Positions 22,306 to 30,503 of a DNA stretch of 64,000 nt are shown piece by piece. Every line of letters starts with the position of its first letter. The stretch's first letter is position 1. This DNA is from Coriobacteriales bacterium (GTDB lineage: Bacteria > Actinomycetota > Coriobacteriia > Coriobacteriales > UBA8131). A program made the translations under genes and the position numbers. The stretch lies in NCBI GenBank assembly GCA_031256715.1, contig JAIRQA010000040.1, positions 16,736-80,735 on the forward strand, read 5' to 3'. The notes under the pieces are model-generated. The model had not been told where the DNA came from. It saw nothing but the letters and a program-made list of their open reading frames with translations, and made no database searches.

Positions 22306-22380
22306 GCGGGTGTCGCCAAGTGGTAAGGCCCAAGCTTCCCAAGCTTGTACTCGCCGGTTCGAATCCGGTCACCCGCTCCA
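22306..22380 (+). tRNA. tRNA-Gly (anticodon CCC), CCA encoded
   Basis: Manual cloverleaf: acceptor GCGGGTG/CACCCGC, anticodon stem CAAGC/GCTTG with loop TTCCCAA, T arm GCCGG-TTCGAAT-CCGGT, discriminator T, then CCA. Confidence 0.9.
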
Positions 22381-22775
22381 GGTACGCTAGGTAGCTCATT
22401 GAGCTACCTAGCGTATCTGCACTTGGGCGAAAGAACTTGAAGCCTGGCAAGGGTTTAAGCGTTAAAAAATCAGCCAGTGGCTCCTTTGTAGCGAGGTTTG
22501 CGAACGTGAGATAGGAAAGAGAGCTGTTATCTTGCCGCACATCATCTCTCTTCAGATGTGTCAGCGCGATTGCGTGTTCAGATGTGTTAGTATGTATTTA
22601 ATTTGTGGGACACTCTCCCGAACATCGGATTTGCCAAGAGTAATCTACACTGAAAGCTGCAAAACGCAAGAGCGAGCAGTGAGGAGTAAAAAAACGAGAG
22701 CTTACTTACATACAAGAGTTTAGAGGGCAAGTAGTTGGTAGCTATCGCAATGTAATTTTTTTAGAGAAATGAGTC

Positions 22776-23264
22776 ATGCGCAAAATAGCGTTCGTAAATA
22801 ACGGTACGGAAATCAAAAAGGTGATGATTTATGATAGCGGCAACGGCGTGTACCTTTTTGGCTATACAACAATGCTCGACTGCAACTGCATCTGGGATGA
22901 ATGGTATGAGAATTTGTCCGACGCCGAAGCACGCTGCTCTGAGGACTTTGGCCTATCCCCAGAGGAATTCATTGCAATCGCCGACCCGTTGGATTGGTGC
23001 AATCATGATTACATTATGCCAGTTAAGATAAAGGGCAGAGAGTTAAGAAAGCCGGAATTTGATAAATGGGAGATTTTGCGTGATGGCAAGTGGCAGCCTT
23101 TTTTACCTCCGTATGATGAAACGCAGGATATATGTGCCATGACTGTTAATGAGCGGCTTAACATGGCGGGATTGTTAGAGGAGTTTAAGCAGGCAAAACA
23201 CACCGATAAAGCAAAGGCAAGAAAGATTCTGTCCGCTGTTAATAAGGGTGCAAAAGATTTTTGA
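22776..23264 (+). CDS. hypothetical protein (162 aa), first gene of the island
   Basis: Clean ORF with normal composition (W/D/E/C-rich, immunity-protein-like feel). No family recognised. Confidence 0.5.
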   Translation: MRKIAFVNNGTEIKKVMIYDSGNGVYLFGYTTMLDCNCIWDEWYENLSDAEARCSEDFGLSPEEFIAIADPLDWCNHDYIMPVKIKGRELRKPEFDKWEILRDGKWQPFLPPYDETQDICAMTVNERLNMAGLLEEFKQAKHTDKAKARKILSAVNKGAKDF

Positions 23265-23488
23265 GCCGCTTATCTGCGCACTTCAGTTCACTGGAATGTT
23301 GCGCCCACTTGGGTTCGATCCCAGGGACATGCGATAACAAAAGACCTCCTGTCATGGAAGTTCAGATCATTGCGATGTGGTGGTTGGGAACGGCTACAAG
23401 AAGAGGCTTCGTAAATAGGCTACCCATAGAAGATATAATTCGCACGCTTTTTTATTACAAATGCAGTTTGAAAGGACTCAATTTAGCA

Positions 23489-24402
23489 TGAGCAGAGTTT
23501 TCTACAACAGATTAGTGGAAGGTCAGACCGTCTCTGCTATCATCCATAATGGCAGTTACTTTTTTCAGCACATGGCAGTCTACGAGGATGGCTCCGTTAG
23601 TTGTTGGAAGCGAGTAGGGCTAGACGAGCTTCCTGAGCAGCTAAACAAAGGATGGCTTGTGACAGAAGTGCCCACTGGCGAAAATCTTAATGTTCACGGA
23701 TTAGGAGATTTTAAAATCATTGCGGCTGAATGGATGCATACACCGGAAAGTTATGTCGCGCATATTTGCGACTGCGTAAAGCAGATGAACCCAGACATGG
23801 AGGGCTTGTACAAAGAAACACGTCCGCAAAGTCAGCGCTGGGAAAAAAACCGCGTAAGTTGGAGCGCATCGCCTACTCCCTATAAGATTGCCGAAAGCTT
23901 TGGATACGACATCAGCAAAGGGGAATCAACAAGTCTTTTTTATAGATGTGGAGAAAAACTGCGGTTAACGCAGCTCACTGCATTTCCAGATAAGACAATC
24001 GCCATTGACTCACTTCCCGGGCAATGGTTTTCTCTACATGAAATTTATAAGATGTTTGAAACAGGTGAGCTAACGAGCAGCTTTGAAGGAAAGGGCAATA
24101 TCTTGTTAGGCGAACTTGGCGCAATAACGGCTGTGCGCGAGTGTGGAACATCAAACGATGACAAGCTTATGGAAATCGTAGATTTGCTTGCAAAGACCAG
24201 TGACGAGCCTACATCACATGATCGCTGTAAAAATGCATACTATGAATACTTAAGATGGCCAACTGAGGAATGCCGTAAGCGGTTACAAGCAGCATATGAG
24301 GCAGTTCCGGAGCACGAGCGAAGATATCTAGGCGACATGGACAGCAAGGATTGGGACTACAGAAGAATCATTTATCACCCAGAAAATAAACGGGAAGTAT
24401 GA
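23489..24402 (+). CDS. hypothetical protein (about 304 aa)
   Basis: Long ORF with ordinary composition; ATG 23489 or 23461. No family recognised. Confidence 0.5.
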
Positions 24403-24434
24403 AAGATTGGCAAATATTCATAATCTGCTTGTAC

Positions 24435-24581
24435 GTTACTGTCCTAAGCCCTATCTCAGGTTATCCCGAGGCGAGTGAAGCGAGAGCTTAAAGGTTCTAG
24501 CTCGCCAGACTGATGTGTCAGAGCCTTAAGCATTGTCGCCACGGCAATCTTAGGATGACGCAGGAGGGTGTGGACAGTAAC
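24435..24581 (+). mobile_element. 147-bp MITE-like element, copy B
   Basis: Ends GTTACTGTCC... and ...GGACAGTAAC. The interior (GAGCTTAAAGGTTCTAG...CGCCACGGCAATCTTAGGATGACGCAG) matches the reverse complement of copy A with few mismatches. Confidence 0.75.
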
Positions 24582-24730
24582 CCGCAAAACGAAAACGCAA
24601 TAGTGACATATGGGAGCATTTGACAGTAAATGACGGCAAATGCTACAATTACAATTTCTATAAAACGTGTAGACAAAAAGAAAATCTCTTAGTGGGAACA
24701 AAAAGTTAACCAGCAACAGAAAGGTGAATC

Positions 24731-24997
24731 ATGAGCACAGTAACAGTTCGTATGGATGCAGACATGAAGCGAGAAGCAGAGAGGATTGTTGGCAGCTTTG
24801 GCATCAATTTGCCTACGGCATTACGCATGTTTACAGCAGAAATCGTGCGCACAAAGTCTGTTCCAGTAAAGCTAGAGCGCGAGACTTCCTCCTATTTTGG
24901 ACTTACCGGAGAGGCATACCATGAGTTTTTGTTAGATGCGAAGAGAAGAATCGACGCCGGAGAACGAGGCACCGTGCATGAATTGATAGAGGTGTGA
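24731..24997 (+). CDS. RelB/DinJ-family type II antitoxin
   Basis: MSTVTVRMDADMKREAERIVGSFGINLPTALRMFTAEIV... is a ribbon-helix-helix DinJ-like N-terminus. Its stop lies 1 nt before the toxin ATG. Confidence 0.8.
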   Translation: MSTVTVRMDADMKREAERIVGSFGINLPTALRMFTAEIVRTKSVPVKLERETSSYFGLTGEAYHEFLLDAKRRIDAGERGTVHELIEV

Positions 24998-24998
24998 A

Positions 24999-25256
24999 AT
25001 GCCAATTACCTTTGACAATCCCGCATGGGTACAATACACCGAATGGCAAGAGCTTGACAAGAAAACCCTTAGGAAAATCAATAAGCTCCTGAAGTCTATA
25101 CAGCGCGATGGCATTAATACGATTGGAAAAGTCGAGCGTCTTAAAGGTGACCTCTCTGGATTTTATTCTGCTAGGATTGACGAAAAGAACCGTCTGGTCT
25201 TCTATGTTGTTGGTGATGATATCGTCATCGTTTCTTGCTCGGGGCATTACGAATAA
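24999..25256 (+). CDS. yoeB: YoeB/Txe-family type II toxin (mRNA interferase)
   Basis: 85 aa; W..Y..WQE.DKK....IN.L...I.R......GK.E.LK..LSGF.S.RI...+RLVY......I.I..C..HY pattern as in E. coli YoeB. Confidence 0.85.
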   Translation: MPITFDNPAWVQYTEWQELDKKTLRKINKLLKSIQRDGINTIGKVERLKGDLSGFYSARIDEKNRLVFYVVGDDIVIVSCSGHYE

Positions 25257-25257
25257 A

Positions 25258-25862
25258 AAAGGGCTGGCAGAGGCTGAAAGCGAACGTGTTGCCTTAAAGC
25301 TCGGCTTCACTTCTCCACAAAATATTGAACTTTATATTTATGACAGCCAAAGCGCGATGCAGATTAAAAAGTATGGCTTGATAGTACCAATTTTGAAGTT
25401 GTTTGAGAATTTTAACTGGTATATTGGGGACAATATTGGTACGATGTGATTTTAACCTCTCCTGCCAATCCAGGCAACGCTCATGACTATGAGTCTGTTA
25501 AAGGGGCTGGGGTTCACGAGATGGTTCACGCTTATAATTCTCTACTTAATTTGAGGATGCCTTTGTGGGTAACTGAGGGTATGGCGCTGTATTTGACAGG
25601 GCAGAAGCCACGTGAAGATCTATATTCTACATACTATTTTGTTCCTAGCATCGAACAAACTCATACAGGCAGTCCAATAGAGTTTGCCGATATAGGCGGC
25701 TACGATTTTGCCTATACATATATTGAATATCTGAACAGTGTGTTTGGTTGGGAGAAAGTTCTGGTTTTTGCCAAGTCTAACGATTTTGTAAGCGCGTTTG
25801 GCAAAGACGAGGTTAATGTCTATGACGGCTGGATTGCATTTTTAAAAGAGAATTACAGCTAG
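25258..25862 (+). pseudogene. HExxH gluzincin-like peptidase remnant, N-terminally truncated and frameshifted near 25445
   Basis: Frame 1 reads ...ALKLGFTSPQNIELYIYDSQSAMQ...WYIGDNIGTM* and continues in frame 3 as ILTSPANPG...GVHEMVHAYN...WVTEGMALYL. No start codon after the yoeB stop. Confidence 0.5.
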
Positions 25863-26095
25863 GCCTGTGGTGATATATAGCAAAGCATGAGTGTAGAGAA
25901 GACCAGTACCAACCTAACACAGCTTCTTCAGCTATCCAGCTTCCTAATGTCTCAAAGTACACAGAAAAAGACCAACACAAGGCAGACATTGCCACCAAGT
26001 TCATTGGTCGCGGTTCTAAATATTCATCTACAGAGGCTTACAGAAAAGCATTCGGCGAGCTTGCAAATAGTGGTGTATACACAGAAGATGACATT

Positions 26096-26935
26096 GTGTT
26101 CATATCAGCTGAGGGTAACAGACCCGGAAGGTTAGACCCTGATTGGAAAGAGATTGATAAAGCAATAGAGGCGCGTGCCAAAATAGTTGTAGACAACGAA
26201 GCTAATAGAAATCGGAGTTACAATTTAGGCGAGCGGCAGGTTCGCGAATATCTTTCTGATAACGGCTACTATGTCGAAGAAGAAAATGATAAGTATGCTG
26301 TGTATGTTCGCTACAGCCATGAAACACCTAACACGGCTACTTCTAAGGCTCCAGAAGTGACCGCACCAAGAATTGGTGAGCAGGCAAAGAGTGTTTATGA
26401 TAGTGCCGTAAAATATGACAAACTCGTTACTCCAATGCTTAAAGATATGCAGGAAAGAGGCGTTGAGCTTATTGGCTTGGAGTATAGGATAAAAGGCCTA
26501 GATAGGCTGGTTGAGAAGCTCCAGCAAGACAAGGATAGCCCAATCAAAGATGCACTTAGATATACATATATGCTTAATGAAGATGGATTCGGTGAACACG
26601 TGGCTGCAATTATTACCAAATTACAAGATAGCGGGCTTGAGTGTGTTAGAATCAGAAACACATTTAATGACGTAAAGAACTATCGTGGCGTTAACACACT
26701 CTTCAAGTTAGAAGACGGTTTCATTTTTGAACTTCAATTCCACACACAAGCTAGCTTTGATGCAAAGCAAAAGGCTCATGAACTTTACGAAGAATTGCGA
26801 GTAAGCAATGACGCAAACAAGATAAGGAAACTAGGCGATCAGATGGGCGAAATTTTTGCATCTATACCAATGCCTGAATATGTAGACTTGATTATAAGTT
26901 ATGACAATTTATATGCTGATGAGAATAAGGAGTAG
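26096..26935 (+). CDS. RelA/SpoT-like nucleotide pyrophosphokinase-domain protein (toxSAS-like). The frame is open upstream to 25874 but without ATG/GTG/TTG.
   Basis: YRIKGLDRLVEKL, IKDALRYTYM, NYRGVNTLF and FELQFHT line up with the small-alarmone-synthetase motifs RVKS..S..EK, D..G.R, GY.S.H and EIQIRT. The upstream in-frame segment ADIATKFIGRGSKYSSTEAYRKAFGELANSGVYTEDDIVFISAEGNRPGR looks like a separate N-terminal module. Confidence 0.6.
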   Translation: MFISAEGNRPGRLDPDWKEIDKAIEARAKIVVDNEANRNRSYNLGERQVREYLSDNGYYVEEENDKYAVYVRYSHETPNTATSKAPEVTAPRIGEQAKSVYDSAVKYDKLVTPMLKDMQERGVELIGLEYRIKGLDRLVEKLQQDKDSPIKDALRYTYMLNEDGFGEHVAAIITKLQDSGLECVRIRNTFNDVKNYRGVNTLFKLEDGFIFELQFHTQASFDAKQKAHELYEELRVSNDANKIRKLGDQMGEIFASIPMPEYVDLIISYDNLYADENKE

Positions 26936-26937
26936 CC

Positions 26938-27180
26938 ATGAAATATTATGTGCGCAAAAATGCTAGAAAGTTCAATGGGATACCAATCAGTATTGTAGTT
27001 AAGGCTGTAGGATACCGTAAGTTCCCAGCAAGAGCGTGGATATTAGAATCCAGAGATTTTACATCTGATATCCCACCATATGATGATGTATGGTACGATC
27101 TTGTTGAGGTCAGCGAAGAAGAGGCCCTTCGTATCGCAAAAAATACAGACGAATATAGAGCATATACAGAGGGATTATAG
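26938..27180 (+). CDS. small protein (80 aa), candidate cognate antitoxin or immunity partner of the RelA/SpoT-like gene
   Basis: ATG 2 nt after the upstream stop (tight coupling). No family recognised. Confidence 0.45.
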   Translation: MKYYVRKNARKFNGIPISIVVKAVGYRKFPARAWILESRDFTSDIPPYDDVWYDLVEVSEEEALRIAKNTDEYRAYTEGL

Positions 27181-27182
27181 CA

Positions 27183-28337
27183 ATGGTTAGAGCAGATACA
27201 TCAAGAACCCCCGATACCTCTGGTAGCGATGCTGCCAGAGCTGCTGAAGCGGCAGCTGCTAGTGCTGCTGCTAGTAGTGCCACCCAAGCAGCTCCACAGC
27301 CAAAATTTAGAATCGAGACTCCCGAAGAAAAAGCAGCAAGTTTTGCAGCAGCTAAGGAAAAAGCTGCTAAAGAACGAGCAAGAAAAGAAGCTGAAAAGGC
27401 AAGAAAAGAAGCAGAAAAAGAAAAGGCTACTCCAAAGCGTCCAGATTCTATAGGTGAAAAACAGTCTCAGATTAGCCCCTTTGACATCATGAGGCAAATG
27501 GGCTATGACCCATACGCACACCTTACAAGAAACCAACCCACCTTCACAAGATACAGCGAGAACCCGCAAATTCGCTCAATGCTTGAACCTGAGCAAACAC
27601 CTTCCACTGAAGCAAACGCTAACGAGGTTACCCAAGAAGCACCTAAGCAAAAGCCAGCAACAAGACCCAGCGATGTCATGTATCGCAGTGACACAAGGCG
27701 AGCAGGCACGCCTAATAATGCTGATGTACACAGTGGAAACTATAACCAAGCAGATGATTTTCTTTCTAATAAGATAGAAACACCAGAAGTATCTGTAATG
27801 AAACTTGATAAGGCTCGTGCTTTAATAGACAAAGATAAGCCAGATGGTTTATACGATCTTATTGCTCTTGAAACTATAAACTTCGCTACTGGCTATCAGG
27901 TTACACCTGATCTTACCTTTGACAATCCTACTTATAGGTGGAGCGATGAGGAATACGCATGTTGTGTCAATATATTTAGAGACCTTGGAGATGGAATAGC
28001 TTATGCAGGCAAGTTTGCTGGTGAGCCTGAAATTAGCCTACTTGTAGAAGATAGGGCGCTTGCTATAGAACTTGGAAGAAAATACAATCAACAGTCTGTG
28101 CTAGACTGGGCTACATTAAATGAAGGGATGACAAATACAGAAAACTACATTAAGGTTTGCGAAACGCTTGGAGCTGAAGAAGGCGAAAAAATCCTTGCAA
28201 CATTTACAGAAAATGATATACATGATTTAATTACATATCTAATTGGAGATAACAGACCTACTTTAATTAAGGCAGCAGTTTGCAATGGAATAAGAGAAGA
28301 TGTAGAAAAGGCTAGAAACCGCCATGGCCAACATTAA
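27183..28337 (+). CDS. hypothetical protein with an A/K/E-rich N-terminal half and a globular C-terminal domain (phage or conjugative polyvalent-protein-like)
   Basis: 384-aa ORF whose ATG lies 2 nt after the previous stop. Domain not identified. Confidence 0.5.
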   Translation: MVRADTSRTPDTSGSDAARAAEAAAASAAASSATQAAPQPKFRIETPEEKAASFAAAKEKAAKERARKEAEKARKEAEKEKATPKRPDSIGEKQSQISPFDIMRQMGYDPYAHLTRNQPTFTRYSENPQIRSMLEPEQTPSTEANANEVTQEAPKQKPATRPSDVMYRSDTRRAGTPNNADVHSGNYNQADDFLSNKIETPEVSVMKLDKARALIDKDKPDGLYDLIALETINFATGYQVTPDLTFDNPTYRWSDEEYACCVNIFRDLGDGIAYAGKFAGEPEISLLVEDRALAIELGRKYNQQSVLDWATLNEGMTNTENYIKVCETLGAEEGEKILATFTENDIHDLITYLIGDNRPTLIKAAVCNGIREDVEKARNRHGQH

Positions 28338-28363
28338 CCCGCTATCCAAAGAGGAACAAAACA

Positions 28364-28435
28364 ATGGTTAAAGCAGAAACATCAAGAACCACCGAAGGCG
28401 ACAGTCGTGATGTGTTCTTGCGGCGCTCTGAATGA
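28364..28435 (+). pseudogene. 12-codon remnant of a paralog of the 27183 gene, cut off by the left repeat of the AbiE cassette
   Basis: ATGGTTAAAGCAGAAACATCAAGAACC (MVKAETSRT) versus ATGGTTAGAGCAGATACATCAAGAACC (MVRADTSRT) at 27183, with a similar RBS context. Homology ends where the repeat begins at 28398. Confidence 0.6.
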
Positions 28436-28543
28436 TTTTGCGGGCGGACACACGGGCGAACGCAGTTCGCCCCTACGAAGTGCGGTTTCGGCAACCCGAC
28501 TTGCAAAACACGGGCGAACGCAGTTCGCCCCTACGAAGTGCGC
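28398..28543 (+). repeat. left copy of the roughly 150-bp direct repeat bracketing the AbiE module (contains two GGGCGAAC-N4-GTTCGCCC hairpins)
   Basis: GCGACAGTCGTGATGTGTTCTTG...GCTCTGAATGATTTT...CACGGGCGAACGCAGTTCGCCCCTACGAAGTGCG, with the hairpin module repeated once. Confidence 0.85.
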
Positions 28544-28673
28544 TTGTCCTGTCTGGCGGACAAGAAGGCTTGAACATCTGGCAGACAGCATTTCCTTGTG
28601 CAACATGCACTAGTGCTACTGCTAGGCGCTTAGACAGTTGCGCTTATGATTTGCAATGGTAAAAAAATAGCTC

Positions 28674-28702
28674 TTGACTTTATTGTTCGTATAAATTAAG
28701 AT
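28674..28702 (+). promoter_or_regulatory. promoter of the abiE operon (TTGACT-17 nt-TAAGAT) overlapped by an inverted repeat
   Basis: TTGACT 28674-28679 and TAAGAT 28697-28702. TTCGTATAAAT...ATTTACGAA is an imperfect palindrome across the -10, consistent with AbiEi autoregulation. Confidence 0.5.
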
Positions 28703-28723
28703 ATTTACGAACGAAAAGGACAA

Positions 28724-29332
28724 ATGGTGAATGTTGTGGAAACTAAAGATAAGATTGCTGACATCCTAAAAGCGAATAATGGAATCCTCAAAGCGTCTGA
28801 CGCAAGACTTGCCGGCATCTACAACAAAGAATTGCAAAGGATGACAGAGGCGGGCTTACTTGAGCGTATCAGTCGTGGGCTGTATATCTCTGCGTCAAAC
28901 ATACCAGACGATTATCTTTTGGCGCAGTATAAATGTGGCAAAGGCGTTTTTTCTCATGAAACGGCATTGTATTTCCACGGTCTATCTGACCGGACGCCGT
29001 TGGTGCTGATGATGACAATTCCAAGCGGATATAACACAAGGCTCTTAAAAGACAAAATCTCATATCGCTTCTTTTACTGTAAGTCTGATGTCTACTCACT
29101 TGGAATCACAACGCTGCTCTCGCCGCACGGAAATGCTTTGCGAGTTTATGATAGAGAGCGAACGTTGTGCGACTGCATCAAGAGGAAAGACAGCTTGGAT
29201 TCGGACTTGGTGCTTACGGCGGTCAAGCAGTATATGAGCGAGAGCGGGGCTGACCTCGCAAAGTTGCTCTCATGTGCAGAAATGCTAAAAATCCGTGACA
29301 CTTTAAGGCAATATATGGAGGTACTTGTTTGA
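28724..29332 (+). CDS. abiEi: type IV toxin-antitoxin AbiEi-family antitoxin (wHTH)
   Basis: N-terminal ...GILKASDARLAGIYNKELQRMTEAGLLERISRGLY wHTH, about 200 aa, overlapping the downstream NTase gene by 4 nt. Confidence 0.8.
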   Translation: MVNVVETKDKIADILKANNGILKASDARLAGIYNKELQRMTEAGLLERISRGLYISASNIPDDYLLAQYKCGKGVFSHETALYFHGLSDRTPLVLMMTIPSGYNTRLLKDKISYRFFYCKSDVYSLGITTLLSPHGNALRVYDRERTLCDCIKRKDSLDSDLVLTAVKQYMSESGADLAKLLSCAEMLKIRDTLRQYMEVLV

Positions 29333-30180
29333 TGGAGAATAATAAATTCCCAATAGATAATCCGCGTAGGCTCAAAGACTGGGTAAACAATATGGCAAAG
29401 AAAAATAATCTTGTTGCCAACACCGTTTTGCAAAACTACATGATGGAACGATTCTTGGAGCGCGTGTCAGTCTCGAAGTATCGCGACAATTTCATCCTGA
29501 AAGGTGGGTTTCTCATCGCTGCGATGGTGGGAATTGATATGCGAAGCACAATGGATATGGACACAACCATTAAAGGCATTCTAGTCAGCCAAAGCGAAAT
29601 TGAGAAAATCGTTTCGGAAATATTGGCTGCACCGATAAATGATAATGTGACGTTCGAGATTAAGTCTATCAAGCCGATACATGAGGCGGGCGGCTACGAG
29701 GACTTCAGGCTTGGCATAGTTGCTACGTTCTTTGCCATGCGCGTTGATTTGAAGTTAGACATCACCACCGGGGATATTGTCATTCCAAGGGAGGTGGACT
29801 ACTCTTTCAAGCTGATGTTCGAGGACAGGAGTATTCAGGTTAAGGCATACAACATTAATACGATACTTGCCGAGAAAATTGAATCTATACTTGCCCGAAA
29901 CGTTGCAAATACAAGAGCAAGGGATTACTATGACGTATATATTCTGCTGACTACCAGAAGAGGAGAGATTGACAGATGCGAATTGCTTAATGCCATCACC
30001 CTTAAAGCGGTAGAGCGTGGCACTCTCATCTATATTAAGCAGCATGTGAAATATCTGTCGGACATCAGGGAGAGTCGCGACCTACTCGCGTTGTGGAATG
30101 CTTATAGAGATAAGTATCCATACGCAGAAGGCATCGAGTTTTCGTCCATTGTAGATTCTTTGGTACGGCTATTTGAATGA
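29329..30180 (+). CDS. abiEii: AbiEii/AbiGii-family nucleotidyltransferase toxin
   Basis: FLERVSVSKYRDNFILKGGF...MRSTMDMD motif pattern of DUF1814/AbiEii NTases. ATGA overlap with abiEi. Confidence 0.8.
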   Translation: MMENNKFPIDNPRRLKDWVNNMAKKNNLVANTVLQNYMMERFLERVSVSKYRDNFILKGGFLIAAMVGIDMRSTMDMDTTIKGILVSQSEIEKIVSEILAAPINDNVTFEIKSIKPIHEAGGYEDFRLGIVATFFAMRVDLKLDITTGDIVIPREVDYSFKLMFEDRSIQVKAYNINTILAEKIESILARNVANTRARDYYDVYILLTTRRGEIDRCELLNAITLKAVERGTLIYIKQHVKYLSDIRESRDLLALWNAYRDKYPYAEGIEFSSIVDSLVRLFE

Positions 30181-30353
30181 GAATTTCTTCTTGATAAAGC
30201 GGCGCATGATTATTTTTCGAGAGCAATAACAAAGCAATTTGATGTTCAGAATGAGTGAAGTGAATTTGATGATAGAGAAAATGGAACCCAGCTGAAAGGT
30301 TGAGCGCCGAAGAATATATGCGTCGAATTAAATTGTTTAAGCAACTCCCAAAA

Positions 30354-30503
30354 GCGACAGACGTGATGTGTTCTTGTAGTGCTCTGAATGATTTTAGGGG
30401 CGAAAACACGGGCGAACACAGTTCGCCCCTACGAAGTGCGACTTGGTCAATCAGGCGAGCGAGCACACGGGCGAACGAAGGCGCGCCCCTACAAGCATGG
30501 CGC
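30354..30503 (+). repeat. right copy of the roughly 150-bp direct repeat bracketing the AbiE module
   Basis: GCGACAGACGTGATGTGTTCTTG...GCTCTGAATGATTTT...CACGGGCGAACACAGTTCGCCCCTACGAAGTGCG... aligns colinearly with 28398-28543 (roughly four-fifths identical by eye). Confidence 0.85.

Follow-up and report, generated by a model that had tools for sequence, protein, structure and literature searches.

Introduction

Apk2 is an adenosine 3'-pyrophosphokinase of temperate phages that is fused to a MuF domain and comes with the immunity genes iapK and aph1 (PMC12226406; PMC12691689). In Apk2 loci the gene directly after the toxin is iapK, whose product blocks the acceptor site, and the HD-type hydrolase gene aph1 comes next (PMC12226406). 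Enzymes of the Apk1/Apk2/EAS clade (EAS, exported alarmone synthetase) synthesise (p)ppApp and/or (p)ppGpp and act as toxins in the cytoplasm (PMC12691689, PMC12226406), and RelA/SpoT domains are also among those reported for polyvalent proteins of the phage type (Iyer et al. 2017, PMC5512222). Here we describe a locus with a toxin domain of this kind in a 64,000-nucleotide (nt) stretch of a Coriobacteriales genome (contig JAIRQA010000040.1 of assembly GCA_031256715.1); this whole stretch is called the window below.

The locus consists of a 353-codon open reading frame (ORF) that encodes an N-terminal domain of ~125 amino acids (aa), here called the N-module, and a C-terminal alarmone-synthetase (SYNTH) domain, followed by an 80-aa ORF and a 384-aa ORF (Table 1). 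A first-pass annotation, made from the letters alone, had left two options for it, a pair of the toxic small alarmone synthetase (toxSAS) type with a novel sensor, acting in toxin-antitoxin (TA) or defence fashion, or a decaying fragment of a polyvalent protein. The second is the better supported of the two, because there is no Shine-Dalgarno sequence or ATG at the site where the phage homolog has them, because the leader in front of the N-module repeats the linker behind it, and because the surrounding islet holds other broken genes. On balance we favour the reading of the locus as an effector cassette that is 5'-truncated or cryptic and has kept a probable immunity gene.

Results

The C-terminal domain is an alarmone synthetase of the toxin type

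The C-terminal part of the frame matches PDB entry 8VX3 at 5.2e-14 (named "SaSAS" there, this is SaEAS, an alarmone synthetase that Streptomyces albidoflavus exports), and a profile built from 50 homologs, when run against the PDB, returned 8VX3 (2.6e-50) and 6OX6 (Tas1/Apk1; 1.1e-7) and no other entry. The NCBIfam model of the XopAD effector matches at 7.7e-29 over its C-terminal Rel-like part, and phrog_7625, a PHROG of the MuF type, at 5e-20 over its C-terminus. The first-pass annotation had tied its assignment to a RelA/SpoT profile hit, and for the Pfam RelA_SpoT model (PF04607) it does not hold: no match was obtained at E<=0.1, and the homolog P0017 reached only E=0.11; this model does not cover so divergent a clade. 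The SYNTH assignment therefore rests on the PDB, NCBIfam and PHROG matches, which settle the homology and bear out the proposal of a small-alarmone-synthetase-type toxin domain. The homologs are 27-41% identical, and many of them carry Hcp, PAAR or MuF delivery domains.

The motifs that had been picked out by eye (YRIKGLDRLVEKL, IKDALRYT, YRGVN and FELQFHT) are all present. In a 50-sequence alignment the window protein retains 12 of the 12 invariant columns, and it also keeps the essential catalytic residues whose loss the first-pass annotation had considered. The SaEAS active-site residues D121, R124, K154, N169, E182 and Q184 (PMC12691689) align with D226, R229, R259, N274, E286 and Q288 of the window protein, five of the six being identical and the remaining one, K154, being replaced by arginine (R259). 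Because of the structure and profile matches and the kept invariant and active-site residues, the domain is apparently, as judged from its sequence, a catalytically competent member of the Apk1/Apk2/EAS clade. In the Apk2 study, the swaps of the Syn2-3-4 motifs that were tried left the nucleotide specificity unchanged (PMC12226406), and the motifs are therefore no guide to the acceptor nucleotide, which is not readable from the window sequence. Pfam and NCBIfam searches of residues 1-170 found no trafficking domain (Sec signal, PAAR/Rhs, Hcp, LXG, MuF, XopAD or DUF4157), and PADLOC gave no match for the synthetase protein, the 80-aa ORF or the 384-aa ORF.

The N-module is a conserved domain of phages and plasmids

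The N-module is a complete copy of an alpha/beta domain that lacks annotation. The family invariants KDQxK, KFIGxGSxxSST, SxEGxRxxR, D and RxxxYNxGE appear in the window as KDQxK, KFIGRGSxxSST, FISAEGNRxGR, TD and RxRxYNLGERQV, with 28 of 28 invariant columns kept. Some 30 proteins, 124-172 aa long, share 48-67% identity with the domain, and none of them has a Pfam domain or an informative name. The N-terminal stretch quoted in the first-pass annotation is present and is a real conserved domain. Its suspected association with phages and plasmids is also seen. The phage contig that carries the closest relative, P0069, also has genes for an SU10-type portal, a terminase and RNA_pol (PF00940). 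When viral contigs were scanned, 43 N-module loci came up, in 24 of which the domain sits in the middle of an ORF of 1,000 to >4,000 aa; the C-termini of three such giant ORFs, the ones scanned, match phrog_30152, a family of virion structural proteins. The Vibrio phages SUMAE, VPALA and Kuja have the N-module as a separate protein with the annotation hypothetical, and it occurs on 18 cyanobacterial plasmids typed as conjugative or mobilizable; on the Nostoc plasmid pCC7120beta it lies within a 2,581-aa coding sequence near a relaxase gene. In P0002 it is fused to the phage non-structural family A1S_2505. The fusion of N-module and synthetase is unique among the 212 loci that we collected and was not found in 185,579 species genomes; a look-up of the exact protein in the contig index was also negative, and the search for full-length homologs that was to locate the native start came back without one.

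An AlphaFold2 model of the N-module (predicted local distance difference test, pLDDT, 96; predicted template modelling score, pTM, 0.90) shows three parallel strands flanked by helices, with a hairpin at the C-terminus. Foldseek comparison of the model with the PDB and BFVD gave no match at E<=1e-3, the best template modelling scores being 0.35-0.45, to Rossmann-type methyltransferases. No significant Pfam match was found, a profile search of PDB sequences was empty, and neither the N-module nor its giant carriers match any Pfam model, LPD families included. In the Rossmann-like predicted fold, the loops behind the three parallel strands and the positions right after these loops hold the conserved residues, among them a Gly/Ser/Thr-rich loop running into a helix as well as many Arg, Asp and Glu. 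From the model we infer that this loop region may be a phosphate- or nucleotide-binding or catalytic site.

Some partners of the N-module elsewhere are worth recording. In the ORF of one giant phage virion protein (locus L009, 709-10230, 3,174 aa) a NADAR-like stretch (residues 1637-1739) lies directly upstream of the N-module (1769-1888); its Pfam match, E=6e-4, is below the curated cutoff, and phrog_1017 matches it at 6.5e-8. There are hints that the giant N-module proteins string counter-defence enzymes together. Nineteen loci carry the N-module as a standalone gene (18 on viral contigs and one in Vibrio phage SUMAE, where the NrdAB genes adjoin it). The next gene in four of these (L012, L032, L035 and L039) encodes a protein of ~110-120 aa with a CWCAPxxCHGD motif, which we take to resemble DUF4326, and in six standalone loci the upstream gene looks like a terminase small subunit, as read by eye without a family search.

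The frame opens with a linker-like leader and lacks a start codon

The claim that the frame is open for 74 codons upstream of GTG 26096 without a start was borne out by our frame and codon scan: there is no ATG, GTG or TTG among these codons, canonical starts in this frame begin with GTG 26096, and near-cognate codons are limited to ATA 25877, ATC 25934, ATT 25988, ATT 26003 and ATT 26093. The sole canonical start near the 5' end, ATG 25887, is in another frame, where it opens an ORF of 82 aa (25887-26135); the Shine-Dalgarno-like sequence GGTGA (25869-25873) lies 13 nt upstream of it with a duplex energy of -5.8 kcal/mol, to be judged, as are the other duplex energies, against a median of -6.2 kcal/mol for genes in the window. 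Joining ATG 25887 to the long ORF takes an indel between 25890 and 25930. By duplex energy ATC 25934 has no Shine-Dalgarno sequence (+1.2 kcal/mol). When the closest phage homolog (AAGGAG-TATCACT-ATG-GCT-ATT-CAA) is aligned with the window (AACACAG-CTTCT-TCA-GCT-ATC-CAG), both the ribosome-binding site and the ATG of the AAGGAG-N7-ATG arrangement are missing at the matching position. The sole strong promoter-like site upstream precedes relB (24620-24649).

The N-module is bracketed by a 17-nt direct repeat that encodes PNTA[S/T]S. The leader ends in ...QPNTASS, and the second copy of the repeat (CCTAACACGGCTACTTC, 26327-26343), in frame within the interdomain linker, is identical to the first at 15 of 17 positions. 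These two are the only matches in the 64-kb window, and 100 shuffles gave none, with a search pattern that was derived from the same two copies. In giant phage proteins the N-module is likewise flanked by Pro/Thr/Ala/Ser-rich linkers. The layout is that of a polyvalent protein, with two domains, each preceded by a PNTA[S/T]S linker, and an N-module that occurs both solo and in giant proteins. We read the leader as the interdomain-linker remnant of a longer ancestral ORF. The simplest reading is that the ORF formerly extended upstream in a longer multi-domain gene, or that the N-module recombined into a linker, and that a start-less cassette was left.

The 80-aa ORF is a candidate immunity gene

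As noted in the first-pass annotation, the 80-aa ORF begins 2 nt past the synthetase stop, and this is the immunity-gene position of the toxin family. We scanned metagenomes and viral contigs with the synthetase profile and obtained 160 loci, 118 of which have a tightly coupled ORF of 55-115 aa (its start no more than ~45 nt ahead of the toxin stop or 30 nt past it); the commonest arrangement is a 4-nt overlap with the toxin gene. Among the non-redundant coupled ORFs, 56 of 84 form one family, which has no solved relative and gives only spurious kelch-repeat matches.

The 80-aa ORF found no homolog by direct search and shows no BLASTP similarity to one immunity ORF. Aligned with the enlarged family profile by hhalign, it scored 23.0 in local and 17.7 in global mode, values that none of 300 shuffles reached (shuffle means 9.1±1.8 local and 2.5±1.9 global, n=300), and hhalign's own comparison of the ORF with the family gave P=5e-4. 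The alignment is colinear, with an N-terminal YY, a central W and a C-terminal E-[IV]-[ST]-E-E-E-A (EVSEEEA in the window) as landmarks. The position of the ORF is clear and its homology with the family suggestive, and its product is a probable, very divergent immunity protein.

Truncated cassette or functional gene

If the locus is a truncated or cryptic cassette, ORF 25874-26935 would be what is left, minus the start, of an effector gene built like beads on a string, or else an orphan cassette from such a gene, whose source would be a phage or a conjugative element; the order is linker, N-module, linker and alarmone-synthetase toxin domain. Such a history of truncation is one that we infer. 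The toxin, if made, would be expected to move pyrophosphate from ATP to the 3'-OH of ATP/ADP and/or GTP/GDP, with the result that purine nucleotides would be depleted, the cell flooded with (p)ppApp or (p)ppGpp and growth stopped. The 80-aa product may neutralise the toxin by direct binding, like IapK and Tis1. The full-length protein would probably go untranslated or be made at trace level, with good ribosome-binding sites kept by the putative immunity gene and the third gene.

Several observations weigh against this reading. Across 338 codons every invariant residue of both domains is kept and the ORF is otherwise intact, which, at the level of sequence, fits a gene that is still under selection or was disabled only just now; since the ORF is otherwise perfect, inactivation, if any, would be recent. 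Standalone phage homologs start right at the onset of homology (MAIQLP, against SSAIQLP in the window), and the frame is therefore possibly a standalone-type gene minus its start, not an excised part of a larger protein. No longer relative holding both domains was found among the loci and genomes searched, which makes any ancestral architecture conjectural. As for the candidate immunity gene, its HMMER score against the hidden Markov model of the family is 8.9 bits, equalled by two of 2,000 shuffles, and its hhalign probability of 26-31% means weak homology. Finally, the contig is metagenome-derived, and an indel of sequencing origin is a possibility.

The alternative that survives best, though we consider it unlikely, is a live two-gene module of the toxSAS type, acting in TA or abortive-infection fashion, in which trace amounts of full-length protein would be made, the N-module would be a sensor or regulator and the 80-aa product the antitoxin. 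Translation would then begin, with the same rather low likelihood, at one of the non-canonical codons ATC 25934, ATT 25988 and ATA 25877, or else at ATG 25887, with the ribosome slipping into the long frame. The intact ORF and its conserved residues would be accounted for, ATC 25934 is one codon off the Met of the homologs, the islet holds further TA and Abi modules (RelB/YoeB and AbiEi/AbiEii), and trace expression is possibly enough because enzymes of this synthetase family are reported to be extremely fast, at about 100,000 molecules per minute (PMC12691689). At the same time, the non-canonical candidate starts have no Shine-Dalgarno sequence, PADLOC is empty, and the synthetase groups with the delivered toxins of the Apk1/SaEAS type and not with the solved CapRel-type ones, 8VX3 and 6OX6 being its only PDB matches. 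The N-module, moreover, is enzyme-like, occurs elsewhere in phages and plasmids rather than in hosts, and resembles an effector module from a giant virion or plasmid protein rather than a sensor. The same points speak against a CapRel/toxSAS-like pair with a novel sensor as the first-pass annotation had framed it.

Less likely again is that an assembly or sequencing indel hides an intact gene for a ~350-aa two-domain effector, whose true start would be ATG 25887. This is the sole start with a Shine-Dalgarno-like sequence, a single indel in the 43 nt before the domain restores its frame, and some N-module homologs do bear N-terminal extensions of 10-20 residues; deleting 17 nt (25920-25936, with CAGCTTC repeats at the bounds) gives MSVEKTSTNLTQLPNVSKYTEKDQ..., which by eye fits the family consensus. 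However, there are no homopolymer runs in the region, and elsewhere in the window long ORFs (870-970 aa) run without a break, so that the rate of indel errors is apparently low. The spacing between GGTGA and ATG is long, and the in-frame AIQLP matches the closest homolog, so any shift is confined to ~40 nt.

The least probable of these readings, that the functional gene is the 279-aa ORF from GTG 26096, a synthetase toxin with a vestigial half-domain plus the 80-aa immunity protein, has in its favour the first canonical in-frame start, a complete synthetase domain and the dispensability of N-terminal domains for the toxicity of the related toxins Bxa (PMC11699363) and Apk2tox (PMC12226406), and against it a start that has no Shine-Dalgarno sequence (-1.5 kcal/mol), cuts the N-module past its second strand with loss of KDQxK and GRGSxxSST, and leaves unexplained why 55 codons upstream are conserved in frame (48-67% identity).

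The third gene and the surrounding islet

The third gene, translationally coupled to the 80-aa ORF, encodes a protein with a low-complexity N-terminal part of ~200 aa and a conserved domain of ~110 aa (residues ~207-332). This domain (GYQVTF...AGKF.G.PEISF...KYNQ.S.WDW) occurs in about 100 representative clusters, mostly of small proteins; it is fused to Phage_portal in P0105 and lies within the 4,166-aa P0195. An AlphaFold2 model of the domain reached a pLDDT of 80. The protein has no Pfam match and its ~110-aa domain no PDB sequence or fold match; it is not an Aph1-type hydrolase. One relative of the domain matches DUF3293 at E=0.007, and we dropped this link, as the profile comparison gave only 4% probability. 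Separately, a DUF3293 gene stands divergently beside the signal-peptide-type synthetase homologs P0020 and P0021 (L047 3410-3823 and L052 2400-2813, on unrelated contigs). Beyond the third gene, a 43-nt stretch (28353-28395) repeats 27172-27214, that is, the ribosome-binding site and the first 11 codons (MVRADTSRTPD) of the 384-aa gene, at 84% identity. This repeat follows right after the stop of that gene and forms a 23-codon stub (MVKAETSRTTEGDSRDVFLRRSE*, 28364-28435); it looks as if a second paralogous gene was cut off there.

The three genes sit in an 8-kb stretch (22381-30450) between tRNA-Gly(CCC) (22306-22380) and acpS, with a GC content of 43.4% vs 46.8% in the flanks and of ~39% in the synthetase domain and the 80-aa ORF. 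The stretch contains an ORF without assigned function, a DUF7638/DUF7639 protein, RelB/YoeB, AbiEi/AbiEii, an apparently split peptidase gene, the three genes and the stub. The first two could be further immunity-type or accessory genes. Directly upstream of the long frame, two ORFs that overlap, each in its own frame (25108-25449 and 25446-25862), look like one frameshifted HExxH...EG metallopeptidase gene; the 5' part overlaps yoeB, and the pieces have weak Pfam and NCBIfam matches only (BSP peptidase, flagellinolysin HExxH). Making these fragments (25108-25862) a former part of the same ORF would need two stops and a frameshift to be undone, and we rejected it, there being no homology in its support.

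The AbiEi/AbiEii cassette (28724-30180) is framed by a 108-nt direct repeat (28387-28494 and 30343-30450, 84% identical). Hairpins at 28454-28484, 28512-28542 and 30410-30440 have the form GGGCGAAC-GCA-GTTCGCCC followed by CTACGAAGTGCG, which is found nowhere else in the window; repeat and hairpins may have been left by insertion of the cassette or may belong to a small family of repeat elements. At the other end, an inverted repeat with a 20-nt perfect stem (22379-22419; 95% complementary, 1-nt loop) begins with the last bases of tRNA-Gly. In one relative (L220) the tRNA-Gly(CCC) is on the opposite strand relative to trkA.

The flanking genes that were scanned are housekeeping ones (FtsH, DHPS, TrkA, NAD(P)HX dehydratase and others). 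The islet genes are absent beside trkA in 80 related species genomes; the closest relatives of the flanking trkA are from uncultured Coriobacteriales genomes, at <=75% identity in TrkA, and because these relatives are too distant the borders of the islet cannot be defined. No integrase, virion or phage, conjugation or type IV secretion system, or secretion family was matched among the islet ORFs or the scanned flanking genes, no att repeat from the 3' end of tRNA-Gly was found, and Rfam matched tRNA only. The stretch is a patchwork accessory islet in a Coriobacteriales chromosome, and with its several broken pieces it fits the view of the long frame as a remnant.

Table 1. Positions in the window of the features discussed in the text
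Feature	Position	Strand	Remarks
162-aa ORF without family match and 313-aa DUF7638/DUF7639 protein	22776-24402		between the tRNA and RelB/YoeB
Open frame, 353 codons	25874-26935	+	runs from TGA 25871-25873 to TAG 26933-26935
In-frame leader, 19 codons (YIAKHECREDQYQPNTASS)	25874..25930	+	no ATG, GTG or TTG
ATG in the +1 frame	25887..25889	+	sole canonical start near the 5' end
17-nt in-frame direct repeat, copy 1 (CCTAACACAGCTTCTTC)	25913..25929	+	encodes P-N-T-A-S-S
N-module, complete copy of an unannotated ~125-aa alpha/beta domain	25931-26320 (residues 20-148)	+	
GTG, start of the 279-aa entry P0001	26096..26098	+	in the middle of the N-module, at VFISAEGNR
Pro/Thr/Ala-rich interdomain linker (SHETPNTATSKAPEVTAPRIG)	26321..26377	+	holds copy 2 of the repeat
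SYNTH toxin domain, Apk1/Tas1-SaEAS clade	26378..26935 (including TAG; domain to ~26932)	+	PDB, NCBIfam and PHROG matches
80-aa ORF, candidate cognate immunity protein	26938..27180	+	IapK/Tis1 position; AAGGAG 7 nt upstream (-7.7 kcal/mol)
384-aa gene, third in the coupled series	27183-28337	+	begins 2 nt past the 80-aa ORF

Discussion

The most interesting question at this locus is what the N-module does. It might be a new enzyme or sponge of phages and plasmids that handles nucleotides or polyphosphates and is injected or expressed early, although we give this idea a small chance. Its target may then be the nucleotide-based signalling of the host or toxSAS-type immunity; the N-module could, for example, hydrolyse or sequester (p)ppApp, (p)ppGpp or 3'-pyrophosphorylated tRNA. 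Such a role is compatible with the findings because of the conserved loop residues and because the partners (A1S_2505, the NADAR-like stretch and NrdAB) are nucleotide-related. If it were true, the fusion of N-module and synthetase would be a non-HD analogue of the pairing of hydrolase and synthetase in long RelA/SpoT enzymes. Being small and very confidently predicted, the N-module should express easily, and it is a reasonable target in which to look for phage counter-defence or nucleotide-handling activity.

Among known systems, the locus shares with Apk2 a homologous C-terminal toxin domain (31-38% identity to MuF-fused relatives such as P0007), a small ORF closely coupled to its 3' side, a putative mobile-element origin and the placement of the toxin C-terminal to a non-toxic module. 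In contrast to Apk2, it has the unannotated ~125-aa module in place of MuF and no start codon, there is no Aph1-type HD hydrolase gene in the locus, and no phage head genes are found among the scanned neighbours. With Apk1 (Tas1-Tis1; 6OX6), the (p)ppApp synthetase fused to PAAR and delivered by a type VI secretion system (T6SS), it shares the SYNTH fold family and the order of toxin and immunity gene, and PAAR- and Hcp-fused relatives are among its top matches; the window gene, however, has no PAAR, Rhs or Hcp, no T6SS genes occur among the scanned neighbours, and its host belongs to the Gram-positive Coriobacteriales. SaEAS (8VX3; PMC12691689) is the closest solved relative, with the active-site D, R, N, E and Q identical and K replaced by R, but it carries a Sec signal peptide and lacks an immunity gene. 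The window gene is without a signal peptide and without an LXG, DUF4157 or XopAD export domain, and a small ORF does follow it.

The resemblance to polyvalent proteins (PMC5512222) lies in the beads-on-a-string organisation, the low-complexity linkers and the occurrence of the N-module both solo and in giant proteins of phages and of a conjugative plasmid, whereas the window gene has two domains only and is chromosomal without a surrounding element, and its N-module matches no Pfam or LPD family. As in toxSAS systems (FaRel, PhRel, CapRel; PMC12691689), a small synthetase toxin lies beside a candidate neutraliser, and further TA modules share the islet; in contrast to them, the synthetase is of the Apk1/SaEAS-like clade without a CapRel-type PDB match, there is no fused antitoxin domain and no SAH antitoxin, and PADLOC finds nothing.

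Set against these systems, the toxin half adds one more member to a known and growing family, that of toxic alarmone synthetases with immunity genes. What is new is that the trafficking domain is replaced by a widespread, highly conserved and unannotated ~125-aa module of the polyvalent-protein type, the same one that phages and conjugative plasmids incorporate in giant virion or transfer-associated proteins, and that the start-less state, together with the in-frame linker repeats, exemplifies how effector genes may be cut and stored as chromosomal cassettes.

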